This document shows, piece after piece, positions 24,465 through 54,790 of a stretch of 64,000 nucleotides of DNA. The notes under the pieces were generated by a model, which made no database searches, was not told the origin of the DNA, and saw nothing but the letters and a program-made list of their open reading frames with translations. Source of the DNA: Olivibacter ginsenosidimutans (lineage in GTDB: Bacteria; Bacteroidota; Bacteroidia; Sphingobacteriales; Sphingobacteriaceae); the NCBI RefSeq assembly GCF_039542865.1, contig NZ_BAABIQ010000002.1, positions 12,989 to 76,988 of the forward strand, written 5' to 3'. Each line of letters starts with the position of its first letter. The first letter of the stretch is position 1. The position numbers were made by a program, and so were the translations under genes.

Positions 24465-24989
24465 ATGGAGACAGGCCAGTGGACATTTCAGAAAATAGCG
24501 TCATTTAAACGCCTATTCCAGTTTTATTGGGAAAGAGTGTTTGCACATTGTCTATTTTATTCAAAAGATCTGAATACCTCTAAAGATTTAACACAGAATA
24601 TTTTTCTCGATTTGTGGGAGAGGGGTAAGGAGTTTCCGGATCAAGAAAGTTTGGAAAAATACCTGTCTCGTTGTGCAAAATACCAAGTACTGAATTACTT
24701 TCACTATCAGAACACTACACAAAGATGCCCAATAGAGGATATACCCGAACAACCCGATTATCGGAATAATCCGGAATACCTATTTCAATATAAACAACTC
24801 GCCGAAAATCTTGAACGTTTGATTGATTCGCTACGAGAACCATGCCGTACGGTTTTTTGTATGAGTAGAAAACAAAATCTTAGCCATAAAGCCATCTCTA
24901 ACCAAATGGGCATATCCATTAGTACAGTGGAGTATCACATGAGCAATGCGCTACGTTACCTTCGAAAACAATTAGAAGCCCAACGCTAA
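24465..24989 (+). CDS. RNA polymerase ECF-type sigma-70 factor
   Basis: 174 aa with sigma region 2 (DLTQNIFLDLWERG) and region 4 (SHKAISNQMGISISTVEYHMSNALRYLRKQ). Followed by a FecR gene. Confidence 0.85.
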   Translation: METGQWTFQKIASFKRLFQFYWERVFAHCLFYSKDLNTSKDLTQNIFLDLWERGKEFPDQESLEKYLSRCAKYQVLNYFHYQNTTQRCPIEDIPEQPDYRNNPEYLFQYKQLAENLERLIDSLREPCRTVFCMSRKQNLSHKAISNQMGISISTVEYHMSNALRYLRKQLEAQR

Positions 24990-25155
24990 ACCTTTTTTAT
25001 TTTTTTTTAACTGATTTACAGTGCCTTGATAAAATCTTTTATTTTTTCACTGGGGTAACGCTTCCTTACTGTTAGATACCATAAATGGATGGAAGATTTG
25101 ACCTGCCAATGCATGCCCAGCCATGGCTGCGAAAGGTGGATAAAAACCAGGTGAA

Positions 25156-26100
25156 ATGGATAGAATAGATCCCGAGCTATTAAAAAGATATGCGGATGGA
25201 AGCTGCACAGATGAGGAACGCGCTATCGTGGAGGAGTGGTTAGATAAGGAGGATAATTTATTTGATCAAGAAGCTGAACCATTGCCGCAATACCAGTTGG
25301 ATAAACAGAAACGCGCACTATGGAATAGTTTTGTCGAAAAAGCTTTCCTGTACTCTGCAAGATTAAGATGGTGGAGATGGAGTTTGTATGTCAGTCTATT
25401 GGTATTGACAGGACTGGCCATACAAAGTATTTTCCACACCATACAGATCTATAAAGCTCCTGTAGTAATGCATACTCAAGAAGTACCACCGGGTAAAAAT
25501 TTGAAGCTCGTTTTGCCGGATAGCAGTACTGTTTGGCTTGCTGGGGGAAGCACATTGCGTTACCCGGAAACGTTTGCCGACTCTTTGCGTGAATTAAATT
25601 TGGTAGATGGAGAAATCTATTTACATGTTGTGCAAAAAAAGAACCAACCCTTCCGGCTTATTACCGATGGGGCGGTCATTCAGGTTTTGGGTACGCGTTT
25701 CTATGTAGAAAATCGACAGCATAATACACGTATGCGGATTGCACTTGAAGAGGGCAGCATTCGCTTTAGCCGAGGTACTAGTCGACAACTCCTTCAGCCA
25801 GGCGATCAATTGAGCTATTGGAAAGCAGATAGTACGTTCGAGATGCACCGCATTGCTCCAACTGATATTGCTAGATGGAGCAATGGCTTAATCCAATTTA
25901 ATCATACCGTCTTGCAGGAAGCGCTAGAAAAATTGGAAAACCATTACGGGGTTCGGTTTTTAATAGAGGGAAATCCAAACCTGAAACAACCGATAACAGG
26001 CAAATTTGATAACCTTCCGCTATCCCGTGTACTGCATCTTATGGAAGGCGTAACCAACCTGCACTTTAAGCAAGAGGGAAAAACAATAAAAATCAATTAA
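25156..26100 (+). CDS. FecR family anti-sigma factor
   Basis: 314 aa with a zinc-finger-like N-terminus (DGSCTDEERAIVEEWL), a single TM and a FecR periplasmic domain. Confidence 0.9.
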   Translation: MDRIDPELLKRYADGSCTDEERAIVEEWLDKEDNLFDQEAEPLPQYQLDKQKRALWNSFVEKAFLYSARLRWWRWSLYVSLLVLTGLAIQSIFHTIQIYKAPVVMHTQEVPPGKNLKLVLPDSSTVWLAGGSTLRYPETFADSLRELNLVDGEIYLHVVQKKNQPFRLITDGAVIQVLGTRFYVENRQHNTRMRIALEEGSIRFSRGTSRQLLQPGDQLSYWKADSTFEMHRIAPTDIARWSNGLIQFNHTVLQEALEKLENHYGVRFLIEGNPNLKQPITGKFDNLPLSRVLHLMEGVTNLHFKQEGKTIKIN

Positions 26101-26256
26101 TAAAAAAGAGGTATGACGAAAAAAAATAGGGCTAGCCCTGCCATTGGCTTGTTAAGCAATTCAGTTACATAAAAAGTACCGTCAGCGTGTTCCAGCACGC
26201 CGACGGATAAATACATCAATTTTTCAATTCATGATTTAATTAAGAACTTAAAACTA

Positions 26257-28915
26257 ATGAAATTATTTCAACTTCAAAACCCATTATTTGCTTTTGCATT
26301 AAGTCTCAGCCTTACCTTATATTCCTTTACTTACACATTAGCACAGGATCAACCAACACAACGCATTGTTTTAAAAGCGAATACAGCTTCTGTTGAAGAG
26401 TTAATTGCAGCATTAGCGAAACAAGCGGGTTTGAATGTTGTGTATAGTGATATTTCCAGTGAATTACCGAAAAGTGAATATCGGATCCAAGGAAACGAAT
26501 GTGCGGCAATTGTTACAACGAATGTCAGACCAAACTAACCTTAAGATAAGTCTGACCGGTCGTGATGTAATGCTTAAATTAGTACAGAAAGGTACTGTGC
26601 AAGGGGCCGTACACGATAAAAACGGGGAGCCGATTGCCTATGTGAGCATTGCCATACGTGGAAAACAACATACACAAACCGATCAGCAGGGGCGATATTT
26701 ATTGAAGAATGTTGAAGAAGGAACGCATACAATAACGGCCAGCTATATTGGATTAAAAACACAGCAAGGGGTTGTAAAAGTTGTCAATAATGAGGTTGTG
26801 ACGCTAGATTTTACCTTTGACGAAGAGTCGCTGGCATTAGAAGAGACGGAAGTTTTTGGCGTACGGAATCAACAACCTGAAAAATTGGATGACATTACCC
26901 GTTTGCCATTAAAACCGTCTGATCAAATTCAGAGCATATCCATCATTTCTGATAAATTGATTCACCAACAGGGAACACTGACCGTTAGGGATGCCGTACA
27001 GAATGTACCGGGTGTCTATACCTTTTCTACCTATGCTAACACGAAGGAGAGTATCGCTTCACGTGGATTCCGGGGTATACCAACGCTCAAGAATGGTGTA
27101 CGGGTTTATGAAGATGGTTTAGGACAAGGATTCATAACAGACATGGAAGGGGTGGAGAGTATACAGGTATTGAAAGGTTCAAATGCAATTACACAAGGCC
27201 TATCAGCCGATGTGGGTAATTCTGGTGGTGTGGTAAATATCGTTACGAAAACACCTAAGTTCGAAAATAGTGGATATGTATCCATGCGGGTAGGTAGTTG
27301 GGGCTTGGTAAGGCCTGCTTTTGATGTACAGGGCTTGTTGAGCGAGGATAAAAAGGTTGGTTTCCGTATGAATGGTGCGTACGAACGTCGTGATAGCTAT
27401 CGCGCATTGGTTAGTGGTGAGAAAATATATGTGAACCCCTCACTGGCTTGGCGCCCTGATGAAAAGACGAAGCTCATTTTGGAAATGGATTACCTGAATG
27501 ATAGTCGTACGCCGGATGCGGGCACAGTAAACTTGGGAGACTTGGGAACTGACGCGATTTATAATTTACCATACAATCAGTATCTAGGTTTTGAAAATGA
27601 TCGTTATACGACTAAGAACCTGACGTATGCCTTGCGGTTTAACAGGGAACTTACGGATCAGTTAAATCTGAGGGTAGCCTATTTTGGCTCTACGCTGCGC
27701 ACCAATAGTCAAAGTGTAAATTTGGGAACATTGCGTGATACGGCAGTGAATATCCGCACCCGCAACATTATAGGCTCCACAGTAGAAAATAATAATACCG
27801 CACTTCAAATCGACTTGGTGGGCACGGAAATAGAGACTGGGCCTTTCAAACATACGTTTCAGGTAGGCGTAGATTATAAAACCGCGCTCATCAAAACCTA
27901 TCTGCCAGAAAACAATATGCTGCGCATCGACACCGTGGATGTTTACCAACCCTTGACCAACACGTTGCCGGTAAGTGCACGGTTTAATTGGAATGGGACA
28001 CCTGTATCGGATGTCCATATCAATTCCTACGGTTTAATGGCGCAAGATGTAGTGACAATCGGCGCTTATGTAAAAGCAATTATGGGTTTACGCTATAGCA
28101 CGTCAGAGACAGAGAGCAACGGTAACTACGGCACAACCCGAGGGAATGCCTGGAATCCACAACTTGGTGTGATCGTTTCGCCCATGGAGGGCTTCAATGT
28201 GTTTGGGTCTTATACCAGCAATACCAATATCAATGCGGCAGGAATCATTGACCGCGAAGGTAAACCACTTGGCCGTTCGCGTTATGATCAGTTTGAAGTA
28301 GGGACAAAAACGGAATGGTTTGATAATAGGCTTCGTTTCAACCTAACGCTTTATAAAATTAATAACCGAAACCTGCCGATGCGTATCTATGAAGGTAATA
28401 TTCCGACACCTTTCTATGAAAAAGGAGGGAATGACGAGCGTAAAGGTTTGGAAGCAGAGCTCACAGGTAGGCTATTACCGCAATTGGATATTATTGCTGG
28501 TTATGCTTATATCGATGCTAAATACAAGGACCATACTTCCTATTACTACAATTCGGCTCCGCTAAATACACCTAAACACACATATAACCTATACCTTAAT
28601 TATCGTGTTGATAGAGGAACACTGGAGGGACTTTCAGTAGGGGCAGGTATCTATTATCTAGGGAAGCGGCCGATAAGCGATTGGTCGAGAGTGGTTGACG
28701 AGCAGCATGGTATCCAGCCTGGACAAAAACCTTTTGATATGAAGAGTATCACAACGGTTAATGCACAAGCAGGTTATTTATTTAACCAGCGGTGGGATCT
28801 ACGTGTTTTTGTAAACAATATATTCGACGAAATTGGTTACAATGCTTACCGCAGTTTATATATTAACCAAACGGATCCACGAAATGTGTCGGCTATCCTT
28901 ACCTACCATTTTTAG
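26257..28915 (+). pseudogene. TonB-dependent receptor with N-terminal STN domain (FecA-like transducer), interrupted by a frameshift in an A4 run (26470..26473); may be a sequencing error
   Basis: ORF 26257..26538 has a signal peptide and the first half of the STN domain. ORF 26435..28915 in the +1 frame continues STN (VNIGSKETNVRQLLQRMSDQTNLKISL), then carboxypeptidase-regulatory-like, plug and barrel, ending in Phe. Deleting one A gives ...SSELPKVNIGSKE... as a single protein of about 885 aa. Confidence 0.75.
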
Positions 28916-28923
28916 TTCAGCCT

Positions 28924-30063
28924 ATGCAGATCATCAAAACAATACACCTGTGGCTCGGAATTGCTTCCGGGCTAGTGGTGTTTCTCGTTAGTATCACCGG
29001 GGCCCTTTTGGTATTTGAGGAAGATATAACGTTGTGGGGGCACAAATATGCTTTCATTCCACAGGAAGAAAAGGCTTTTATGACACCAACTGCTTTACTG
29101 CAAAAAGCAGAAAGTAGCGCTCCAAAAGGGATGAAGGTTGCCAGTATTTGGTATGGAACAAAGGTACGAAGCGCCCGCATAAGTTTTCGGGCAAATCAGG
29201 GGTCTGCTCATGCGGATGTATACCTGAACCCCTATAATGCCGAGGTACTGAATGTTGATGTAGAAGAGGATGACCATCACGAGGAGAATTTTTTCCATTT
29301 CATGGAAGACGGACATGTGCGTTTGTGGCTTCCCGAATCGATAGGCAAACCGTTGGTTGGCTACGGTACGCTTGCTTTTATCGTGACATTAATTACCGGA
29401 TTGATTTGGTGGTATCCAGCGAAATGGAATCGCGGAACGGTAAAGAAATCATTCTTGATCAAATGGAAGGCAAGATTTAAGCGATTAACGATTGATCTAC
29501 ATAATGTACCTGGTTTTTATTCGTTTCTTATTGCTATTTTGTTAGCCATTACGGGATTATATTTTAGTTTTCCATGGGTGGGTAAGGCTTCTTATTGGAT
29601 GTTCTCCGGAGGAAAAGAACAGGTACAAGTTCAGTTTCCTACTTCTGATACAAGCAGTACTGCCATATTAGATAGGAGCGAGCTATTGGATAGGATTTGG
29701 AAGGCACAGGGGGGCGGCATGAACCGGAATTGGAAACAGCTTTTTATAAGCTTTCCGATAGGACCGACAGCTACCTGGGTGGTAGCAGCAAATAAGTATA
29801 GCGTAAGTTCACACGCGACTGACCTGCATTTTTATGATCAGTATTCGGGCCGCGAATTACATAAACAGGACAAAACCACTGGGGAAATACTGAAAAGCGA
29901 TTTATCTTATCGCATTTTGCTTTATAATTACAATATCCATTTAGGGCGTATTGGTGGAGTGTTTACCAAATGGTTGGCTTTCGTCATTTGCTTAATATGT
30001 GCTTCTCTACCAGTTACTGGTGTGCTCATCTGGTATAACCGGAAATGGAAGCGCCTTGGTTAA
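28924..30063 (+). CDS. PepSY-associated TM helix domain protein (PiuB-like)
   Basis: 379 aa with the N-terminal motif IHLWLGIASGLVVFLVSITGALLVFEEDI, TM helices at both ends and a C-terminal WYNRKWKR. Immediately downstream of the TonB-dependent receptor. Confidence 0.8.
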   Translation: MQIIKTIHLWLGIASGLVVFLVSITGALLVFEEDITLWGHKYAFIPQEEKAFMTPTALLQKAESSAPKGMKVASIWYGTKVRSARISFRANQGSAHADVYLNPYNAEVLNVDVEEDDHHEENFFHFMEDGHVRLWLPESIGKPLVGYGTLAFIVTLITGLIWWYPAKWNRGTVKKSFLIKWKARFKRLTIDLHNVPGFYSFLIAILLAITGLYFSFPWVGKASYWMFSGGKEQVQVQFPTSDTSSTAILDRSELLDRIWKAQGGGMNRNWKQLFISFPIGPTATWVVAANKYSVSSHATDLHFYDQYSGRELHKQDKTTGEILKSDLSYRILLYNYNIHLGRIGGVFTKWLAFVICLICASLPVTGVLIWYNRKWKRLG

Positions 30064-30141
30064 TTTATTGTATATTTGCCATATTTCGTAAGTCGAAAAC
30101 AGTCTTTTTAGACAAAATAACTAGTCTGCTTTAACAAATAA

Positions 30142-31488
30142 ATGGCAAAACGAATAAAGGCAATTAAATGTCCGCATTGTGGTAGTATTGAGAACACCCA
30201 GTTAAAGGACGATTATTACCGCTGTAATAGTTGTGGTACCGAGTATTTTCTAGATAATGACGATGTAAACATCAATTATACCTATCGTTACGAGCACGGC
30301 CAAAGGTTAGCACCCGAAACAAAAAAGCTCATTAAAACGATTTCGATAATTATTGGTGGACTATTTTTATTTTTTGTGATCATCAACATAGTAGGCGCAT
30401 TGGTTGGTAGCCGTTCCAACAGTAAACCAATAGAAACGAATGTGAGCACATCGTATGCACCAACGGTTCCTAAGGTACCGGAAAAGAAGTATTACTGGTA
30501 TAGTAAATCAGATTATTTTTTTGAAGATGCTAACCATAAATTGGTCTATGTACTGGTGGGGGTTAGACGATTGCTTGGAGGTGCATCAGATGATGGTAAC
30601 GTTTTAGCCATTTTCTATGATGTGCAAAACAAAAATAAGGAATTGGCCAAGAGCGAGTTACCCCTAAAATCTGAAAGCCTCAATACCCGCTTCCGCGAAT
30701 TTGAAAATGGTGATTTATATTTCATTGTCGACAATAAACGCCTATTCAAAATAAATCGAAACGATAAATTGATTACCGAAATAACGGCAGAAAAACTAGG
30801 CGAGGTGCCTGAATTGCATGTGGGCTTTGCGAAGATAGAATTTGCGTACGAAAGTGAGGGAGACGGATTCCGCATATTAACGAACGAGGGTAAGCAAGTG
30901 TTTTATTATCCTATAACGGGTAAGGTTTATGACAAGGATGCTTTGTATCGTGCTCAAGGCGAAAGAGCTAGTATTCCAAAAGATACGCCGATCCGTACGG
31001 CGTTTAAATTTTCGGATGAAAGCTTTGAATATCCTGATGAAAAACTTCAATTAATCCAATACCGGTATCGGTCTCCCATGGGTTATCCAAAAAATGAGCC
31101 CCATTTCCGTTGGTCAAAAGATTTTGGCGGTTCAGGGATTTTTACAGAACGCGACCCTTACAAAAAGGTATTGATTAATTCATTTCAGCAGAAAAGAGCA
31201 AGGATTATCGATTTTAAGGATTTTACACCTGGCCGCCTTTATTTTAGTGCGTCAGTATTAGATTTCAACGATAAGTATGTGTTGATTTCTTTTAAACCTA
31301 CACCTGCAGAAGATGAAACCTGTTCGGTGCAATTATTGGATGCTAAAACGGCAGCCATTATATGGACATATGCTACCGATAAAAAATATGTTTCGGCAGG
31401 CCATATCATGACCGACGGATATCGAATAGACAATGAACTGTTAGGCGCTGATGGTAAAGTCAAACAAACGCTTACTATACCGGATTAA
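30142..31488 (+). CDS. membrane protein with N-terminal zinc ribbon (CPHCG...CNSCG), one TM helix and a large C-terminal extracytoplasmic domain (hypothetical; YdjG-like topology)
   Basis: 448 aa. The first 35 aa hold two CxxC pairs. The TM helix is IIIGGLFLFFVIINIVGALVG. Directly upstream of an SPFH-SHOCT gene. Confidence 0.5.
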   Translation: MAKRIKAIKCPHCGSIENTQLKDDYYRCNSCGTEYFLDNDDVNINYTYRYEHGQRLAPETKKLIKTISIIIGGLFLFFVIINIVGALVGSRSNSKPIETNVSTSYAPTVPKVPEKKYYWYSKSDYFFEDANHKLVYVLVGVRRLLGGASDDGNVLAIFYDVQNKNKELAKSELPLKSESLNTRFREFENGDLYFIVDNKRLFKINRNDKLITEITAEKLGEVPELHVGFAKIEFAYESEGDGFRILTNEGKQVFYYPITGKVYDKDALYRAQGERASIPKDTPIRTAFKFSDESFEYPDEKLQLIQYRYRSPMGYPKNEPHFRWSKDFGGSGIFTERDPYKKVLINSFQQKRARIIDFKDFTPGRLYFSASVLDFNDKYVLISFKPTPAEDETCSVQLLDAKTAAIIWTYATDKKYVSAGHIMTDGYRIDNELLGADGKVKQTLTIPD

Positions 31489-31499
31489 AAAATAGATTT

Positions 31500-32501
31500 A
31501 TGAGTATATTCAATGTTTTCAATAATCAGTTGGCTCAAGTAATACAATGGGAGCAGCAAGCCCCTGAGCTATTATGGTATCGATTTCCCTCCTCTAGGAA
31601 TGAAGTAAAAAATGCCAGCAAATTAATTGTAGCACCAGGCCAAGGCTGCGTTCTGGTTTACGAAGGGAAAGTAGCAGATGTGATTGAAGAGGAAGGCATA
31701 TTTAATTTGAAAACGGATAACCATCCATTTATCACCACATTGTTGAACATCCGCAAGAACTTTGAAAGTGAACACAAATTATTTGTCTATTTTTTCCGTA
31801 AAGCGGATGTATTGAATCAGGCTTGGGGAACAGCAACGCCGGTAAAATATGTGGATGGCACATATGGTATCCCCATCAGCATGGGAGCTAATGGAAATTT
31901 TTCCTACCGCATTAGCGATGTGTCGAAACTGTTTAAGCAAGTGATCGGAAATAAGCCATCGTTTACCACAGTAGAGATGAAAGCCATTATCAGTAACCGC
32001 ATCCAAGAGGCTATAGCGGCTTATCTAGCATCTAAAAGCTATTCCTTTCAGGAAATTGATGCACAGTTAGCTAACATGGCGAAGGATATTCAGCAGCAGC
32101 TAGACAAGGAATTTCTAGCGCTTGGCTTGAATCTTTTGGATTTGAAAATTAGCGGAACGCAGTTTGACGAAAAGACACAGTCCCGTATTGCTCGTGTAGC
32201 AGATGTAACAACAGATGTTTTTGCCGCTAAGCAAGCTGGATTGGATTATGTTGATCTGGAAAAATTACGGGCTCTGCGGGATGCCGCACGCAATGAGGGT
32301 GGGCTGGCTGGTGCTGGTTTGCAATTGGGAGCTGGTTTGGAGTTAGGCAAAAAATTTCAGGAAGAAAAGGAAGCGCTACTCAATAAAGATGGTGCAGACG
32401 TAGTCGAAAAATTACGTAAATTGCAATTGCTACATGCAGAAGGTATTATCACTGAGGAGGAGTTTCAGGCAAAGAAAAAGGAACTATTAGCTAATCTTTA
32501 A
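31500..32501 (+). CDS. SPFH/Band-7-like (Band_7_1, YdjI-like) protein with C-terminal SHOCT motif
   Basis: 333 aa. The N-terminus resembles the Band_7_1 family (WEQQAPELLWYRFPSS...IVAPGQGCVLVYEGKV). There is a Gly/Ala-rich linker and a C-terminal SHOCT-like LHAEGIITEEEFQAKKKELL. Confidence 0.65.
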   Translation: MSIFNVFNNQLAQVIQWEQQAPELLWYRFPSSRNEVKNASKLIVAPGQGCVLVYEGKVADVIEEEGIFNLKTDNHPFITTLLNIRKNFESEHKLFVYFFRKADVLNQAWGTATPVKYVDGTYGIPISMGANGNFSYRISDVSKLFKQVIGNKPSFTTVEMKAIISNRIQEAIAAYLASKSYSFQEIDAQLANMAKDIQQQLDKEFLALGLNLLDLKISGTQFDEKTQSRIARVADVTTDVFAAKQAGLDYVDLEKLRALRDAARNEGGLAGAGLQLGAGLELGKKFQEEKEALLNKDGADVVEKLRKLQLLHAEGIITEEEFQAKKKELLANL

Positions 32502-32512
32502 ATAAACACGCC

Positions 32513-32767
32513 ATGAAGAAGGTAATTGGCATTATAGCGGTTTTCATTGTACTTGTTATATTGGCTTATATTGTTTTACAAGTTATTTGGGGTATTGACG
32601 TAGTGCGGGCGGAGACCATTACCAAGTCAATAACTTCCTTGTGCGTATTGGCTATTGGAGCTTTTTTATTAACCTTAATCTTAGCTTTCTTCTTTCGAAA
32701 AGAAGATAGAGGATATCATCAAACAACAGACGGTGTTGCCCAACGAAAATTGGATAACCAAAAGTGA
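32513..32767 (+). CDS. small two-TM membrane protein (hypothetical)
   Basis: 84 aa with two hydrophobic helices. It follows the SPFH-SHOCT gene after an 11-bp gap. Confidence 0.35.
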   Translation: MKKVIGIIAVFIVLVILAYIVLQVIWGIDVVRAETITKSITSLCVLAIGAFLLTLILAFFFRKEDRGYHQTTDGVAQRKLDNQK

Positions 32768-32779
32768 GTACCGTTGTAC

Positions 32780-33193
32780 TATGACGACGATTTTACCTGC
32801 TCCTTATTTTTCTGCTGCTCAAGGTTCCAGTTTCTGCGCAATATGGCATTCAGGATATCCCCAGTCCAAAACAAAAAGGGCAAGACTATTTTGTCAGCAA
32901 CCCAGACGGTATCTTAAGTGGAGATGTCGTTACAACCTTAGATTCGATTGCCAAGAATATTGAGCAGCAAACCAGTGCTGAAGTTGCGATCGCGGTAGCA
33001 AGCGATTTTAAAGGAGAGGATGACTTCGAATTTGCACTTGAACTTTTTAATACCTGGGGCCTAGGAAAGAAGACAAATGATAATGGTCTACTTTTATTTG
33101 TGGCTAAAGATAGACGAGCATACCAGAGGGAGTAGTAGCGGAAGTTTCGGCGGCGGCAGTAGTGGCGGTGGTGGTGCTGGCGGCCGATGGTAG
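32780..33193 (+). pseudogene. remnant of a TPM-domain (TLP18.3/Psb32/MOLO-1-like) gene with frameshifts and an internal deletion
   Basis: One frame gives ...LLLKVPVSAQYGIQDIPSPKQKGQDYFVSNPDGILSGDVVTTLDSIAKNIEQQTSAEVAIAVASDFKGEDDFEFALELFNTWGLGKKTNDNGLLLFVAKDRRAYQ, an N-terminal TPM domain with no in-frame ATG. The ATG at 32780 is in another frame. After a stop, a third frame gives SSGSFGGGSSGGGGAGGRW*, the Gly-rich tail typical of TPM proteins. The TM helix and domain centre are missing. Confidence 0.5.
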
Positions 33194-33287
33194 TTTGTTT
33201 TACTCCTGTTCCAAGGAAGGCATCATCAAAGCGAGCAGCCAAATGAATTAATTATTTTGATATTGCTTTTCGATACTACCGCTTCTG

Positions 33288-49801: not shown

Positions 49802-50788
49802 ATGAGTAAGCCAACATCAAGATTACCTTTCATAGAGATTATTGAATGGGAAGCCCATGACCCCAATCTCTTAATGTGGAAGACTCCAGACGGAGATCGA
49901 GAAATAAAAAATGGTGCAAAACTTATTGTGCGGGATAGCCAGTTGGCTATGCTCATAAGTGAGGGGCAGTTAGCTGGAGTTTTTAAAGCCGGTACACACA
50001 CGTTACATACACAGAATATCCCGATTTTAACACGACTTAAGGGATGGAAATATGGTTTCGAAAGTCCGTTTAAAATAGATGTTTACTTCTTTTCCAATAA
50101 ACAATTTGTAAATCTAAAATGGGGAACACCATCTCCCATAATACTTCGCGATCCGCAATTCGGTCAGGTACGTATAAGGGCTTTTGGAACCTATAATGTG
50201 CGCGTAACAGATGTTGATTTGTTCTTTAAAGAATATGCGGGAAATCGTGAACAACTTGACATTACCGAGTTCGAAAAAAAATTGCGTGATTTTATTGCTC
50301 CTAAATTCGGAGAGGCATTAGCCCTTTCTAAAATAGCCACATTGGATATTTCACAAAATCTTTCGGCATTAAATGCACGTATTCAACCCCTCATTCAACC
50401 TTATTTTGAAAACTTCGGTGTAGAGATTACGCAGTTTACTGTGACAGCCGTTAATTTACCAGAAGAAGTAATAAGCTATTACGATAAGGTAACGGGTATG
50501 AACATGGTGAACAATTTGGAAAATTTCCAGAAATTCAATACGGCCATTGCCACGAGCAATGAGCATAGTAGGATAGGTGAGGGTGCACAACAAGGGCTTG
50601 CCATGGGGATGCTGCTAACGCAGTTGAACCAAACACAAGAACAACAGAAAACAGCATATACATCCACCCAAGAAAATGAAGATGCCATAGCTGATCGTTT
50701 ACAGAAACTTAAAAATTTATTTGATAACGGTTTGATCGATGAATCGGAATATAAGGCTAAGAAAGAAGTTATTTTGGGAGAACTTTAA
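49802..50788 (+). CDS. SPFH/Band-7-like (Band_7_1, YdjI-like) protein with C-terminal SHOCT motif (second copy)
   Basis: 328 aa, paralogous in layout to 31500..32501 (IIEWEAHDPNLLMWKTPDGDREIKNGAKLIVRDSQLAMLISEGQ). C-terminal SHOCT-like LKNLFDNGLIDESEYKAKKEVILGEL. Confidence 0.65.
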   Translation: MSKPTSRLPFIEIIEWEAHDPNLLMWKTPDGDREIKNGAKLIVRDSQLAMLISEGQLAGVFKAGTHTLHTQNIPILTRLKGWKYGFESPFKIDVYFFSNKQFVNLKWGTPSPIILRDPQFGQVRIRAFGTYNVRVTDVDLFFKEYAGNREQLDITEFEKKLRDFIAPKFGEALALSKIATLDISQNLSALNARIQPLIQPYFENFGVEITQFTVTAVNLPEEVISYYDKVTGMNMVNNLENFQKFNTAIATSNEHSRIGEGAQQGLAMGMLLTQLNQTQEQQKTAYTSTQENEDAIADRLQKLKNLFDNGLIDESEYKAKKEVILGEL

Positions 50789-50916
50789 GCGAATGTTCTA
50801 AGAGTTATAACGAAGCAATCTAAAGCCATAGTGATCATTTTTGATCAACGTTTAGATAATCTCTAAGCTGCTTATTTAAATCTGATAACCCAAAACTGCA
50901 TCAATAAATTCAATCA

Positions 50917-51156
50917 ATGAAAGAACATAAATCGTCATCAAGTATAGTGGAACGCCTGAAAGCTCGAGCATTGGCCCAACAGAAAGATACTGTAAAAGTG
51001 GAACTAGCCAAAACAACGGTAAGGACATGCCCGAATTGTGGTGCCGGGAGGGCAAAACAGGATGGACTAACCCATTGCGCTTATTGTGGCTATTGCTTTA
51101 GTGCGCATACACTCGTAGATGGCATACAGATAAAACAAAGTGATAACTCAAAATAG
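50917..51156 (+). CDS. small zinc-ribbon protein
   Basis: 79 aa with CPNCG...CAYCGYC (two CxxC pairs). Confidence 0.45.
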   Translation: MKEHKSSSSIVERLKARALAQQKDTVKVELAKTTVRTCPNCGAGRAKQDGLTHCAYCGYCFSAHTLVDGIQIKQSDNSK

Positions 51157-51217
51157 ATTCAGATAATAGGTATCAAGATAAAAGACCAGTATCACGACAA
51201 GGCACTTGCAACATATA

Positions 51218-52051
51218 ATGGCTAATCAGCTGGTTGATATTTTTTTTACTTTTTACTTTAAGCTAATGGCTCTTTTTTTTAGAAAAAAACAACATAGTAA
51301 CAACGCAAATGCTGAGCAGCGTGAGGATATCGTATCACGTCTACAGGTATTTTTGGCCAGACTAGATGAGAAAGCAAAGCTATTGTATGATGAGGCGAAA
51401 GAAAGTGCACAATCGATAGCTGATGCTGATCCAGATCCTTTCAAGCGTTCTTATTACCAGTTTAAGACAGGTATACAAGGACAATTCCAGGCGTTGTTGC
51501 AAAAGGCTAATACGACTTATCAATCGCAGGTATTACCAAAAGCAAATATGTTTGAACAGATGAAAGTGATGACAATCTTTGCAGCTTGGCATAGTAACTT
51601 TTTACACCTGATGACGGATGTATTTGAAGGGGTGCAGTTGCGCGACCTGGAAAAAGAATATCGGGAAATTATGGACGACTATACGTTGGCCAAAGAGAAA
51701 TTTCATTGTTCGCAATGTGGTGGCAAATTGGAAATCGATCAGTTTTATTACATTTCTACCTACATTACTTGTCCATATTGCAAAACACAAAATACGTTTC
51801 ATCCTGGCACGAAAACACGCTTATTGGAGTTAATTGCTCGTGATTTGGCGGAATATAGGCATCGAGATTTGAAGGAAAACTACCAAAAAGTGCGTAGAGA
51901 ATATGGCGTAAAAGAAGCGGAGCAAGCTTTCAAAAGCTATATGCGTGCCGTTATTGATGAGATGAATCGTATTCAACCCGGAATGGAAATACAGAACGAT
52001 AGGTTTTATGAACGTATAATAGAAGAATATACCCATCACGGAATAGGTTAA
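51218..52051 (+). CDS. hypothetical protein with internal zinc ribbon (CSQCGG...CPYCKT)
   Basis: The ORF-track start is TTG at 51206. ATG at 51218 gives MANQLVDIFF.... Two CxxC pairs about 20 aa apart. Confidence 0.45.
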   Translation: MANQLVDIFFTFYFKLMALFFRKKQHSNNANAEQREDIVSRLQVFLARLDEKAKLLYDEAKESAQSIADADPDPFKRSYYQFKTGIQGQFQALLQKANTTYQSQVLPKANMFEQMKVMTIFAAWHSNFLHLMTDVFEGVQLRDLEKEYREIMDDYTLAKEKFHCSQCGGKLEIDQFYYISTYITCPYCKTQNTFHPGTKTRLLELIARDLAEYRHRDLKENYQKVRREYGVKEAEQAFKSYMRAVIDEMNRIQPGMEIQNDRFYERIIEEYTHHGIG

Positions 52052-52086
52052 ATAACTTTATATATAAATCTTTAAAACAATACGTT

Positions 52087-52869
52087 ATGTTTAAGAAAAT
52101 GTTTAAAAATCTGACAGATAATTTAACGGAGAAGTTAACGGACAATTTAATGAATAACCAAACTTCTAAAAGCCAAGAGAATTACGCCGAGCAAATGAGG
52201 CAGGCTTATGGTGGTCAGATCGATCAACAAAAGTTTGACAGTCAAGTCTCTGCAATGGGGTATACCACTATAAATTCTGCGAAAGAAGACCCCAATGACC
52301 CGCTAATGCAACCCATTCATGGCGTTACCCTTTTTGATTATGCAGCGGGTGCTGGAAAAATGGGTGAAGGTGTTTCTGAAGATCAAATTTGTGTCGCTTT
52401 GGGTATAGAACGCCCCATGTGGGATGAAGCACGTAAACTTTGGGAAGCCCGGATGAAAGAAGACAAAAGTTTCAACGTAGCTAATGTCTATGCAAAGTAT
52501 TACGGAGAATATAAAAAACATGAGAAATTGGGTTCACTTACTCCACTTCCCGGTGCCGCTCCGCAAACAAATGTTCCATCGGAAGAGATCGAAGCGAATT
52601 TGAAACGTATTGAGGAAGACAAATATTTCTTTTTTGAAATGCAAGCGGCCATGCAAGCGGCCTATGATAACGGAATAGATGGAGCGCAATGGTTGCTTGA
52701 AACGATTGGTATTACCGTTTCCCAATTCAATAGCACGGGAGCTAAATATATGACGGATTTTGGTTTGGTGGCACAAATGATGGATTTTCAAGACCAAAAA
52801 CAAAAAGAATATAGTGCAAAGTTTGCTCAGGATTTAGGTGGTAGTATTGCCGACGATGTGCAATTCTAA
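52087..52869 (+). CDS. hypothetical protein
   Basis: 260-aa ORF in an operon-like array with the SPFH-SHOCT and Zn-ribbon genes. No domain recognised. Confidence 0.4.
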   Translation: MFKKMFKNLTDNLTEKLTDNLMNNQTSKSQENYAEQMRQAYGGQIDQQKFDSQVSAMGYTTINSAKEDPNDPLMQPIHGVTLFDYAAGAGKMGEGVSEDQICVALGIERPMWDEARKLWEARMKEDKSFNVANVYAKYYGEYKKHEKLGSLTPLPGAAPQTNVPSEEIEANLKRIEEDKYFFFEMQAAMQAAYDNGIDGAQWLLETIGITVSQFNSTGAKYMTDFGLVAQMMDFQDQKQKEYSAKFAQDLGGSIADDVQF

Positions 52870-52876
52870 TCGAATA

Positions 52877-54790
52877 CTATACCAAATCTTGTAAAAAAGT
52901 ATCCAACTCCACTTCTTTAGGTAAGTGGAGTTTTTGTTTAATACGGTACTTACTCACACGAATGCTTTTAGGTTCTACATTAAAAACAGAAGCCATTTCT
53001 TTCGTAGATAATCTTAAGTGCATATAGGCACAGTACTTGAGATCTAGGGGAGTCAGTTTATGATCAGACAGTTCCTTAAGCTTTTGAAAGAAGCTGGAAT
53101 GGATTTCCTGAAATTCCTTTGTTGATTTGTTAAGGGTTTCCTCATGGCGCAATTCCGTACGGATTATCTTGGCAATCACTCCCTTGTCTTCTTCATCTAC
53201 GAAAGTTTCTAATCTATCTTTTAGCTGTAGGAGTAATTCATTCTTCCGCTCAATTTGCAAGGCATCTGCCAGAGCCTCTCGTTCCATTTGTTCTTTCTGA
53301 ATTTTTAATAGCTCTTGTTCGGCTTTTAGACGTGCCTGCTCCTCCTGTTCCAGTCGCAATTGCATACGAGCATGTCGCTCAGCCTCGGCTTTTTCAACTA
53401 AAAGAAAGCGCTTTTCTTTTTCCCGCATTTGTGCAATGGCTAAGGCGTCTTCTTTTTCCTTTTGCAAATTTAATTGCTGTTCGGTATGCAAACGTATTTT
53501 GTTACGGTAACTGTAATAAAGTAAAATGAGCGAAATGAGGGCTAATACTGCGACACTAGCATACAATATATTTTGAATTTTTCGGCTTTGCTGTTGGGCC
53601 TTAATGTTTTTCATCTCTAACAAAATCCGCTGATTCTCATATTGCGCTTCCAGTTTGTGGGATTGTACGATTTGATTTTGGTCAAAGAGCTTACTATTGT
53701 ACATCTCCTTTTTCCTTAGAAAAGAAAGAGCTTTTTGGTCTTGTCCAATCTTTTCATAAAGTCGGCTCAAACCTTCCGTTACTTGCGTTAACGCATAATA
53801 CTGTGGAAGTTCTGCTTCAGCCAAATGGACATAAGAGTCTTGTAAATAGATCTCTGCCTGCTTATAATTACCATTATGCGTCTCAAGTTCGGCCAATAAA
53901 CCATTAACATTACCATGAATAAGGTAATTCAAATCCTGATCTGCTACCGCTTGTTGAGCGCGAAGTGCATATTTACGGATACTGTCTTGTACGTACTGAT
54001 GGCTTAATTCATGATATTGAAAATAGTGGTTAGCAATATTTAAATTAGCAATAGCATAGGTATTGTTGCCAACAGCTCCTGGATATAGCTTAAACAAATT
54101 AGCTGCTTGATGTAACTTATATAACATACTATCTAAAAGCAATTGATTCTTACGTTGCTGATAGTCCATTTCTATGGCCACAGACTGCGCCGTATAACTA
54201 TTGCTGAGCAGATCGTAATCTTTGGCTCGTTGAGCATATGTTGTACTTAACTGCGCATATTTAGTCGTTAATTTGAGATCATTCCAGCTAGAGTAGACGG
54301 TATAGAGTAAATAATAAAGTCGGGATTTTAAATCATCATCTTTGTTTGCTGGTATAAGAGCAAGGGCGTCTTGTGCGTTTTTTACAGCGAGATCCCGGAT
54401 GTTCAAATAGTTATAATAATTGGCTAAGGCCATTTTTCCCCAAATCTTGGCATACACCTCTTTGGAGTCAGAAGCCATCTTAGCGGCAGAATCAGCATAT
54501 TTTTTTGCTAAATCAAAGTCATTATCGTATAACTTCTGTCTGCTTAATTCTCCAAAAATCTGTACCTGCTGTGTACGGTTTTGTGCTTGTTCGGCTATTT
54601 TTTTTGCAATGACGATCGTTTGTAAATTTGCTTTGAAATGACCACTTAAACGATACCGTTTTGCCTGCTTTAATAGAGAGTCTACCTGTTGTTCTTTTGT
54701 TTCCACTTGTGCTAACGAGATAGCTGGGCCAAATAGCAGTCCGCAAAAGAAAATGATCCGTAGAAGATGCCGGCAACTCATATTTTGCAT
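52877..54790 (-). CDS. TPR-repeat / single-TM / coiled-coil regulator with C-terminal LuxR(GerE)-type HTH
   Basis: 637 aa with signal peptide, TPR-like repeats over about 400 aa, a TM helix (ILYASVAVLALISLILLYY) and an E/K/Q-rich coiled coil. C-terminal HTH: LTPLDLKYCAYMHLRLSTKEMASVFNVEPKSIRVSKYRIKQKL. Confidence 0.75.
   Translation of the reverse strand: MQNMSCRHLLRIIFFCGLLFGPAISLAQVETKEQQVDSLLKQAKRYRLSGHFKANLQTIVIAKKIAEQAQNRTQQVQIFGELSRQKLYDNDFDLAKKYADSAAKMASDSKEVYAKIWGKMALANYYNYLNIRDLAVKNAQDALALIPANKDDDLKSRLYYLLYTVYSSWNDLKLTTKYAQLSTTYAQRAKDYDLLSNSYTAQSVAIEMDYQQRKNQLLLDSMLYKLHQAANLFKLYPGAVGNNTYAIANLNIANHYFQYHELSHQYVQDSIRKYALRAQQAVADQDLNYLIHGNVNGLLAELETHNGNYKQAEIYLQDSYVHLAEAELPQYYALTQVTEGLSRLYEKIGQDQKALSFLRKKEMYNSKLFDQNQIVQSHKLEAQYENQRILLEMKNIKAQQQSRKIQNILYASVAVLALISLILLYYSYRNKIRLHTEQQLNLQKEKEDALAIAQMREKEKRFLLVEKAEAERHARMQLRLEQEEQARLKAEQELLKIQKEQMEREALADALQIERKNELLLQLKDRLETFVDEEDKGVIAKIIRTELRHEETLNKSTKEFQEIHSSFFQKLKELSDHKLTPLDLKYCAYMHLRLSTKEMASVFNVEPKSIRVSKYRIKQKLHLPKEVELDTFLQDLV
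52906..52935 (+). terminator. rho-independent terminator hairpin (ACTCCACTT-8nt-AAGTGGAGT followed by TTTTT)
   Basis: 9-bp perfect stem, 8-nt loop and a T-run. It lies 37 nt after the stop of 52087..52869 and inside the last codons of the convergent LuxR-type gene. Confidence 0.45.

Follow-up and report, generated by a model that had tools for sequence, protein, structure and literature searches.

SPFH proteins are universal, and the function of most bacterial members is unknown. The only studied system of the Band_7_1 type is that of Bacillus subtilis, YdjGHI. It was shown that the soluble SPFH protein YdjI needs YdjG and YdjH for its localization to the membrane and that it, in turn, recruits PspA (PMC8581546). 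YdjH consists of a TPM domain and, after it, a tail of low complexity (PMC11237479). In a 2026 preprint the genes were renamed samGHI and it was suggested that SamI restrains a SamGH sensor while PspA is dispensable (bioRxiv 10.64898/2026.02.06.704340), a new rereading of the system as an SPFH-restrained membrane sensor complex. In the B. subtilis locus that served as our source the gene order is PspA, YdjG (with a Zn_Ribbon_TF domain), YdjH (TPM) and YdjI (Band_7_1 and ribbon). Here we analyzed a three-gene operon of Olivibacter ginsenosidimutans (Sphingobacteriaceae), which lies at positions 30142-32767 (+ strand) of a 64,000-nucleotide stretch of contig NZ_BAABIQ010000002.1, hereafter the window, and which encodes a ribbon-bearing membrane protein of 448 amino acids, an SPFH protein of 333 amino acids and a small membrane protein of 84 amino acids. 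The identity of the 448 amino acid product to a protein on record for that species is 100%.

The trio is a self-contained and strongly conserved three-gene operon of Bacteroidota. Its three open reading frames (ORFs) are separated by spacers of 11 nucleotides (nt) each, and an earlier note on this DNA, made from the sequence alone, had placed all three correctly, with the exact gap between the first two. We compared the operon with a sample of 80 Bacteroidota loci from species-level genomes, with at most 6 kb per side (Sphingobacterium, Pedobacter, Mucilaginibacter, Niabella, Hymenobacter, Chryseobacterium, Tannerella, Porphyromonas, Dysgonomonas, Prevotella and others, together with Flavobacteriaceae). 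A ribbon gene followed by a gene 2 homolog was found in 77 of the 80 loci. A gene 3 homolog stands directly 3' of the SPFH gene in 66 (phmmer), with a small transmembrane (TM) ORF at this place in four more, and the median gap between genes 2 and 3 is 12 nt. The adjacency of the trio spans at least five orders. The earlier note had set the co-conservation of the first two genes beforehand as a test of its proposal, and the pair turned out to be conserved, in fact as part of a trio. All-versus-all clustering of the ORFs of the 80 loci showed that only these three families are common to different genera; the other clusters reflect synteny inside one genus or a few close genera. The three exceptions to the ribbon–SPFH pairing are two orphan ribbon genes (loci L073 and L082) and one locus on a 5.7-kb contig. 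The orphans are extra copies, and their genomes have complete operons elsewhere (L052 and L043). In a metagenome-assembled genome (MAG) of Dysgonamonadaceae (L006, 714-3395) the order is permuted into SPFH, small TM and ribbon–propeller, with the same three genes together. The operon is also present on contigs of two MAGs titled Janthinobacterium lividum (L079 and L084), whose SPFH protein shares 72% identity with the Hymenobacter bucti one and whose GC content (0.62-0.63) is like that of the Hymenobacter loci. We rejected this occurrence outside Bacteroidota, as the contigs are Hymenobacter-like in both respects and probably mis-binned. The carriers of the trio are soil Sphingobacteriia, Hymenobacter, Flavobacteriia and host-associated Bacteroidales, including the periodontal Tannerella and Porphyromonas. 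In the literature that we searched, neither the gene 1 partner family nor the trio was found.

Gene 2 (31500..32501, + strand) links this operon to the Bacillus system. In a BLASTP alignment its product is 26% identical to B. subtilis YdjI over 232 amino acids (E 2e-28). We also searched six-frame segments of the window and of the 80 loci by phmmer (E<=0.01) with the genuine B. subtilis sequences of PspA, YdjG, YdjH and YdjI. The YdjI query found gene 2 (E 2.7e-28), the other SPFH protein of the window (E 2.4e-30) and 79 of the loci. Judged from these alignments, gene 2 is a true homolog of YdjI/SamI. The Band_7_1 domain (PF13421) covers residues 27-231 (nt 31578-32192) with E 1.2e-38 and 133.3 bits against a cutoff of 24, at profile positions 2-204 of 211, and a C-terminal bihelical SHOCT domain (PF09851) covers residues 303-330 (nt 32406-32489) with E 1.5e-8 and 34.5 bits against a cutoff of 27; both had been read from the letters before, and both exceed their cutoffs. 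It was reported that SHOCT is most often paired with Band_7_1, and the Band_7_1–SHOCT architecture has been on record since 2013 (PMC3581485). The AlphaFold2 (AF2) model of gene 2 has a predicted local distance difference test score (pLDDT) of 77, with a core above 90, and the SHOCT domain is modelled as two helices (298-313 and 319-332; pLDDT ~90). The model matches stomatin, prohibitin, HflK/C, erlin, QmcA and flotillin with a Foldseek probability of 1.0. When the Band_7_1 profile was compared with the PDB, no solved chain related by sequence was detected, and the PDB sequence search with gene 2 itself gave one weak match, to a chain named CapW (E 0.004). A TM helix was not found in gene 2, where no 19-residue window reaches the Kyte-Doolittle threshold of 1.6. 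Between the two domains lies a helical, Gly/Ala-rich and very conserved segment (residues ~252-284; family consensus LEKLRALRDAARNEGGLAGAGxQLGxGxELGK), which falls where AF2 gives no placement.

Gene 1 (30142..31488, + strand) encodes a bitopic membrane protein. It begins with a C4 zinc ribbon (residues 8-34, nt 30163-30243); in 29 homologs two of its cysteines, C28 and C31, never change, and the other two, C10 and C13, almost never. The ribbon is followed by a conserved acidic segment, EYFLDNDD(I/V)NIN, and then by one TM helix predicted from hydrophobicity (residues 69-87, nt 30346-30402; AF2 helix 58-88), after which ~360 residues remain. The C-terminal domain of ~330 amino acids is all-beta and is modelled as a divergent beta-propeller (residues 117-443, nt 30490-31470). 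This agrees with the double-CxxC ribbon, single TM helix and large extracytoplasmic domain that were described earlier, the latter now being recognized as a propeller. The number of Lys and Arg residues (K+R) has a mean of 2.57 before the TM helix versus 1.64 after it, and is higher before the helix in 55 sequences of the family and higher after it in 11. Because of this bias, the positive-inside rule predicts that the ribbon is cytoplasmic and the propeller periplasmic (N-in).

In a word-indexed search we found 239 relatives of the 448 amino acid protein, and all named ones belong to Bacteroidota. They have no Pfam annotation, except for one precomputed accession, PF28099, on relative P0114, which our local Pfam copy did not reproduce. 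When 1.84 billion representatives were searched exhaustively with a profile, 557 relatives came out (240 at E<=1e-30), and in nearly all of them the ribbon starts at residue 1 and the length is 390-470 amino acids. Gene 1 stands for an unannotated protein family of ~560 representatives without a Pfam model. A PDB sequence search with the family gave only generic ribbon matches and sub-threshold BamB blades. We rejected the identity of an IS1595-type transposase, since the transposase ribbon profile gives 23.5 bits, below its cutoff of 25.4, and the remainder of the protein is a TM helix and a beta-propeller in place of a DDE catalytic domain. Four relatives (P0042, P0089, P0095 and P0111) carry the public label 'transposase'; this looks like misannotation that apparently arose from a weak likeness between the N-terminal ribbon and the ribbon of IS1595 transposases.

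Gene 3 (32513..32767, + strand) encodes the 84 amino acid protein, whose two TM helices, already seen in the earlier note, lie at residues 4-22 and 43-61 in the TM scan. They are predicted to form a hairpin with both ends in the cytoplasm, with a WGI conserved in the short periplasmic loop and, on the cytoplasmic side, a basic tail (mean 5.35 K+R) that bears a conserved G-x-V-A-Q-x-K motif. Pfam and NCBIfam contain no significant family for this protein; NfeD gave no Pfam match, and the protein is too short for an OB domain.

The three proteins are not conserved evenly. The mean pairwise identity is 67% in the ribbon and its acidic extension, 23% in the linker and TM region and 37% in the propeller of gene 1, while the SPFH protein reaches 57% and the hairpin protein 39%. 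In 11 loci, two to three full ribbon–TM–propeller paralogs stand beside a single SPFH gene. In these paralog pairs the identity of the ribbons (53-96%) is always higher than that of the propellers (26-58%), and every paralog retains both CxxC pairs and the TM helix. The topology signals put the ribbon and the tail of the 84 amino acid protein on the cytoplasmic side, which is also that of the SPFH protein. The simplest reading of this mosaic and of the paralogs is that conserved cytoplasmic elements would dock a conserved SPFH oligomer, with variable propellers facing the periplasm.

The likeness to YdjGHI, which the earlier note had suggested, holds in part. In both systems the Band_7_1 SPFH protein is soluble and has no anchor of its own (PMC8581546), it is encoded in one operon with a membrane protein that starts in a C4 ribbon (at residue ~2-5), and the operon also encodes a second, small or medium, membrane protein. 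There are also differences. The Bacillus operon contains pspA, whereas none accompanies the trio. YdjG combines two N-terminal ribbons with an NTF2-like domain and a TM helix at its C-terminus (PMC11237479), of which Pfam finds Zn_Ribbon_TF only, while gene 1 has the opposite layout of an N-in ribbon, a TM helix and a large periplasmic beta-propeller. The second partner is the TPM-domain protein YdjH in Bacillus but an 84 amino acid hairpin here, the SPFH protein ends in a double zinc ribbon in Bacillus but in SHOCT in Bacteroidota, and the host of the trio is diderm while Bacillus is monoderm. When the 448 amino acid family was aligned with YdjG by hhalign, only the N-terminal ribbon aligned (30 columns, probability 88.5%). 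The phmmer searches with PspA, YdjG and YdjH gave no matches in the window or in the 80 loci; for PspA, of which the earlier note had likewise seen no homolog in this DNA, this is a single-sequence search of limited sensitivity. We therefore rejected a homology of gene 1 to YdjG beyond the ribbon, on the ribbon-only alignment and the empty phmmer search. Of the suggested resemblance, the YdjI homology and the alignment of the ribbon remain, while the rest of gene 1 is unrelated to YdjG. By sequence comparison the trio is not an ortholog of ydjGHI; what the two have in common is the SPFH component and the principle that a membrane partner carries a ribbon. The best description of the trio is a variant of a YdjI-type system of soluble SPFH protein and ribbon-anchored partner, which is PspA-free and has a periplasmic propeller. 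Such a version would extend the pairing of soluble SPFH protein and ribbon partner beyond Firmicutes, adapted to a diderm envelope.

Other SPFH systems are more distant. In the SPFH–NfeD pairs (E. coli QmcA–YbbJ and flotillin–YuaF/YqiJ) an SPFH protein is likewise co-transcribed with a small membrane protein and the SPFH fold is shared, but the SPFH protein of the trio has no TM helix, the 84 amino acid partner has no NfeD/OB-fold domain and there is an obligatory third component, the ribbon–TM–propeller protein. The cages of HflK/C–FtsH, prohibitin, stomatin and erlin share with gene 2 the SPFH core and the helices that follow it (the Foldseek matches given above), and by analogy an oligomeric, membrane-proximal scaffold would be a natural expectation for gene 2. 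Unlike these, gene 2 has no detectable sequence relation to solved chains, no TM anchor and no linked protease. A survey of SPFH proteins in P. aeruginosa (PMC13086221) does not mention YdjI-type proteins.

We propose that the trio forms one inner-membrane complex around a cytoplasmic SPFH oligomer; we see the balance for and against this proposal as about even. Gene 2, having no anchor of its own, would be held beneath the inner membrane by its two integral partners, with the ribbon and acidic linker of gene 1 and the basic tail of the 84 amino acid hairpin as the docking elements. The beta-propeller of gene 1 may bind or sense an envelope component in the periplasm, and the SPFH protein, as a ring or dome, may scaffold or restrain the membrane partners. 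The logic would be that of SamI/YdjI acting on SamG/SamH, minus the operonic PspA and plus a periplasm-facing sensor for the diderm envelope, and the physiological role would likely be to monitor or maintain the membrane or the envelope. We infer that the three proteins interact, that they do so through these surfaces, that the SPFH protein oligomerises and that the operon serves in envelope stress; the analysis yields concrete candidate docking surfaces for such an interaction. Several points weigh against the proposal. The ribbon could have another ligand, such as nucleic acid, the 80 loci link neither a regulator nor PspA nor an effector to the trio, the analogy is drawn from a single system with experiments behind it, and that in a monoderm, and in one published test the isolated SHOCT domain did not oligomerise (PMC3581485). 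A bolder form of the idea is a Bacteroidota-specific transmembrane signalling device in which interchangeable periplasmic propellers (up to three paralogs per operon) would pass on envelope events to the cytoplasm, in that they control the assembly of a soluble SPFH cage via ribbon docking, with the hairpin as co-anchor or gated effector. We think this quite unlikely, although, if true, it would mean SPFH-based sensing without PspA, kinases or sigma factors.

Other explanations can be offered for the same data. One option is that the SPFH protein encloses gene 1 and gene 3 as clients and controls the access of a protease to them (e.g., FtsH), as HflK/C does. The fold speaks for such a quality-control cage, as it matches HflK/C, prohibitin and erlin, which are gates of proteases or ligases; yet none of the 80 loci has a linked protease, gene 2 lacks the HflK/C-type TM anchor, and Band_7_1 has no sequence-detectable relative of solved structure, so there is no template for the geometry of the assembly. 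We consider this option unlikely. Another is that the trio recruits a PspA/IM30 encoded elsewhere in the genome to the damaged membrane. That gene 2 is a YdjI homolog fits with this, as do the dependence of PspA foci on YdjI in B. subtilis (PMC8581546) and the Band-7 genes that adjoin pspA in some Bacteroidota (PMC9239133), but neither the window nor the 80 loci (up to 6 kb per side) gave a PspA match and the SamGHI phenotype does not need PspA (bioRxiv 10.64898/2026.02.06.704340), and such a tether seems to us distinctly improbable.

A role in defence, which the earlier note had raised beside envelope stress, found even less in its favour. In this explanation the variable propellers would detect phage and the 84 amino acid protein would be a holin-like effector of abortive infection, held in check by the SPFH protein. 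The sensor gene is indeed tandemly duplicated and divergent, the genomic contexts differ between genera, and a two-TM protein with a charged tail is holin-like in shape, even if the Pfam holin match has only E 0.03. Against these stand the results of PADLOC-DB 2.0, which gave only weak noise of the gene 1 ribbon to a Cas12 ribbon (E>=4.5e-4, ~27 residues) and nothing for the SPFH or the 84 amino acid protein; NCBIfam and PADLOC scans of the seven proteins of both Band_7_1 cassettes in the window likewise gave nothing meaningful. Neither among 50,697 phage records nor among 72,556 plasmid records was a relative of the 448 amino acid protein found, by which we also rejected carriage by mobile elements. 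The flanks are housekeeping, transport or regulatory genes, here as in Tannerella and Parapedobacter, the GC content is the same as in the whole window, and strong conservation, not diversification, marks the SPFH and ribbon parts. We hold an anti-phage function to be very improbable, and a defence island or a recent transfer of the trio has no support. As for the option that three unrelated genes became neighbours by chance, it is practically negligible, for the same families are adjacent in 77 of the 80 loci and across at least five orders with median gaps of ~12 nt while the other neighbours change.

Downstream of the trio lies a feature that the ORF list behind the earlier note had missed. 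A decayed gene of a TPM-domain membrane protein is found at 32781..33193 (+ strand) by three-frame translation and the Pfam TPM_phosphatase profile. Its ATG at 32781, only 14 nt past the stop of gene 3, is immediately followed by a frameshift; the frame 32785-33132 then encodes a signal peptide and TPM positions 1-77 of 125 (Pfam E 1.3e-17, partial profile), and the original Ser/Gly tail (RGSSSGSFGGGSSGGGGAGGRW, ending in a stop) persists in another frame at 33125-33193. Compared with intact relatives, ~354 codons (~1.06 kb) were lost. The TPM gene in this window is a pseudogene and, because its start lies so close to the stop of the 84 amino acid gene, it was probably once co-transcribed with the trio. 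The remnant is of interest since YdjH of Bacillus is itself a TPM protein, but the linkage of TPM to the trio is sporadic. The remnant and YdjH have no pairwise similarity, although both match the Pfam TPM model. An intact protein of 497 amino acids that is divergently adjacent to the operon in Mucilaginibacter (L022) shares 45% identity with the remnant, and an intact protein 3.7 kb upstream of the operon in Hymenobacter (L030) shares 31%. Besides a signal peptide and a full TPM domain, such intact relatives of ~500 amino acids have several TM helices, CxxC pairs and the same tail (...GGGAGGSW). Apart from these two, none of the 80 loci has a TPM gene beside the trio. We rejected TPM as a fourth core component in general, since it is found in 2 of 80 loci and in this window, and keep it as a weak lead. 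An ORF of 118 amino acids on the minus strand (32886-33242) is antisense to the remnant and is regarded as spurious.

On the upstream side, an ECF sigma factor, a FecR-type anti-sigma factor, a TonB-dependent receptor and a PepSY_TM protein are encoded in a row at 24465-30063 (+ strand). The gap between the PepSY_TM gene and the operon is only 78 nt, without a terminator-like site, and therefore transcription of this iron- or siderophore-regulated unit may, in this genome, read through into the trio. The -7 consensus of Bacteroides and Flavobacterium promoters is TAnnTTTG, and by reading of the sequence a candidate element of this type, TATATTTG, fits it at 30071..30078 (+ strand), 64 nt before the first start codon. 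TAnnTTTG is present in 19 of the 80 upstream regions of the family (24%) versus 7.6% of random 150-nt windows; this enrichment is modest and the element is a lead only. Besides TPM, the sole extra neighbour that recurs across genera is a DUF1266 gene, which abuts the ribbon gene upstream on the same strand in Parapedobacter (L005, 5275-6000) and in two MAGs of Bacteroidales/Bacteroidota (L037 and L045). Elsewhere the window contains transporter and metabolic genes, and the GC content of the module equals that of the window (0.397).

The window contains a second Band_7_1 and SHOCT gene at 49802-50788 (+ strand; Pfam E 3e-72), which the earlier note had taken for another copy of one recurring cassette. 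The gene itself is real, and its cassette shares with the trio a Band_7_1 and SHOCT protein and the conservation in other Bacteroidota; here zinc-ribbon-containing proteins follow the SPFH gene. However, the two SPFH proteins are 28% identical, about as distant from each other as each is from YdjI, and the partners are unrelated: the second cassette (49802-52869, + strand) consists of the SPFH gene, an ~80 amino acid ribbon protein, a 281 amino acid one-ribbon protein (260-310 amino acids in this type of cassette) and a 260 amino acid DUF6620 protein, and these partners have no TM helix. Its SPFH protein belongs to a far larger family (more than 6,900 matches), and the order of the four genes is kept in Niabella (L086) and Flavobacterium (L088) but not in Capnocytophaga. 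On sequence grounds this is a different conserved cassette and not a duplicate of the trio; each SPFH gene belongs to a cassette of its own that is conserved across Bacteroidota. In the Flavobacterium locus a short TPM_phosphatase gene (L088, 9250-9741) lies ~1.1 kb after the DUF6620 gene, which makes a third, loose proximity of TPM and Band_7_1 after YdjH and the remnant described above. Convergent with the second cassette in the window, at 52877-54790 (- strand), a protein of 637 amino acids is encoded that has no Pfam match at E<=1e-5. Its start is a signal or TM segment, it further has a long region rich in repeats, a TM helix and a coiled coil, and its C-terminal segment resembles a LuxR-type helix-turn-helix.

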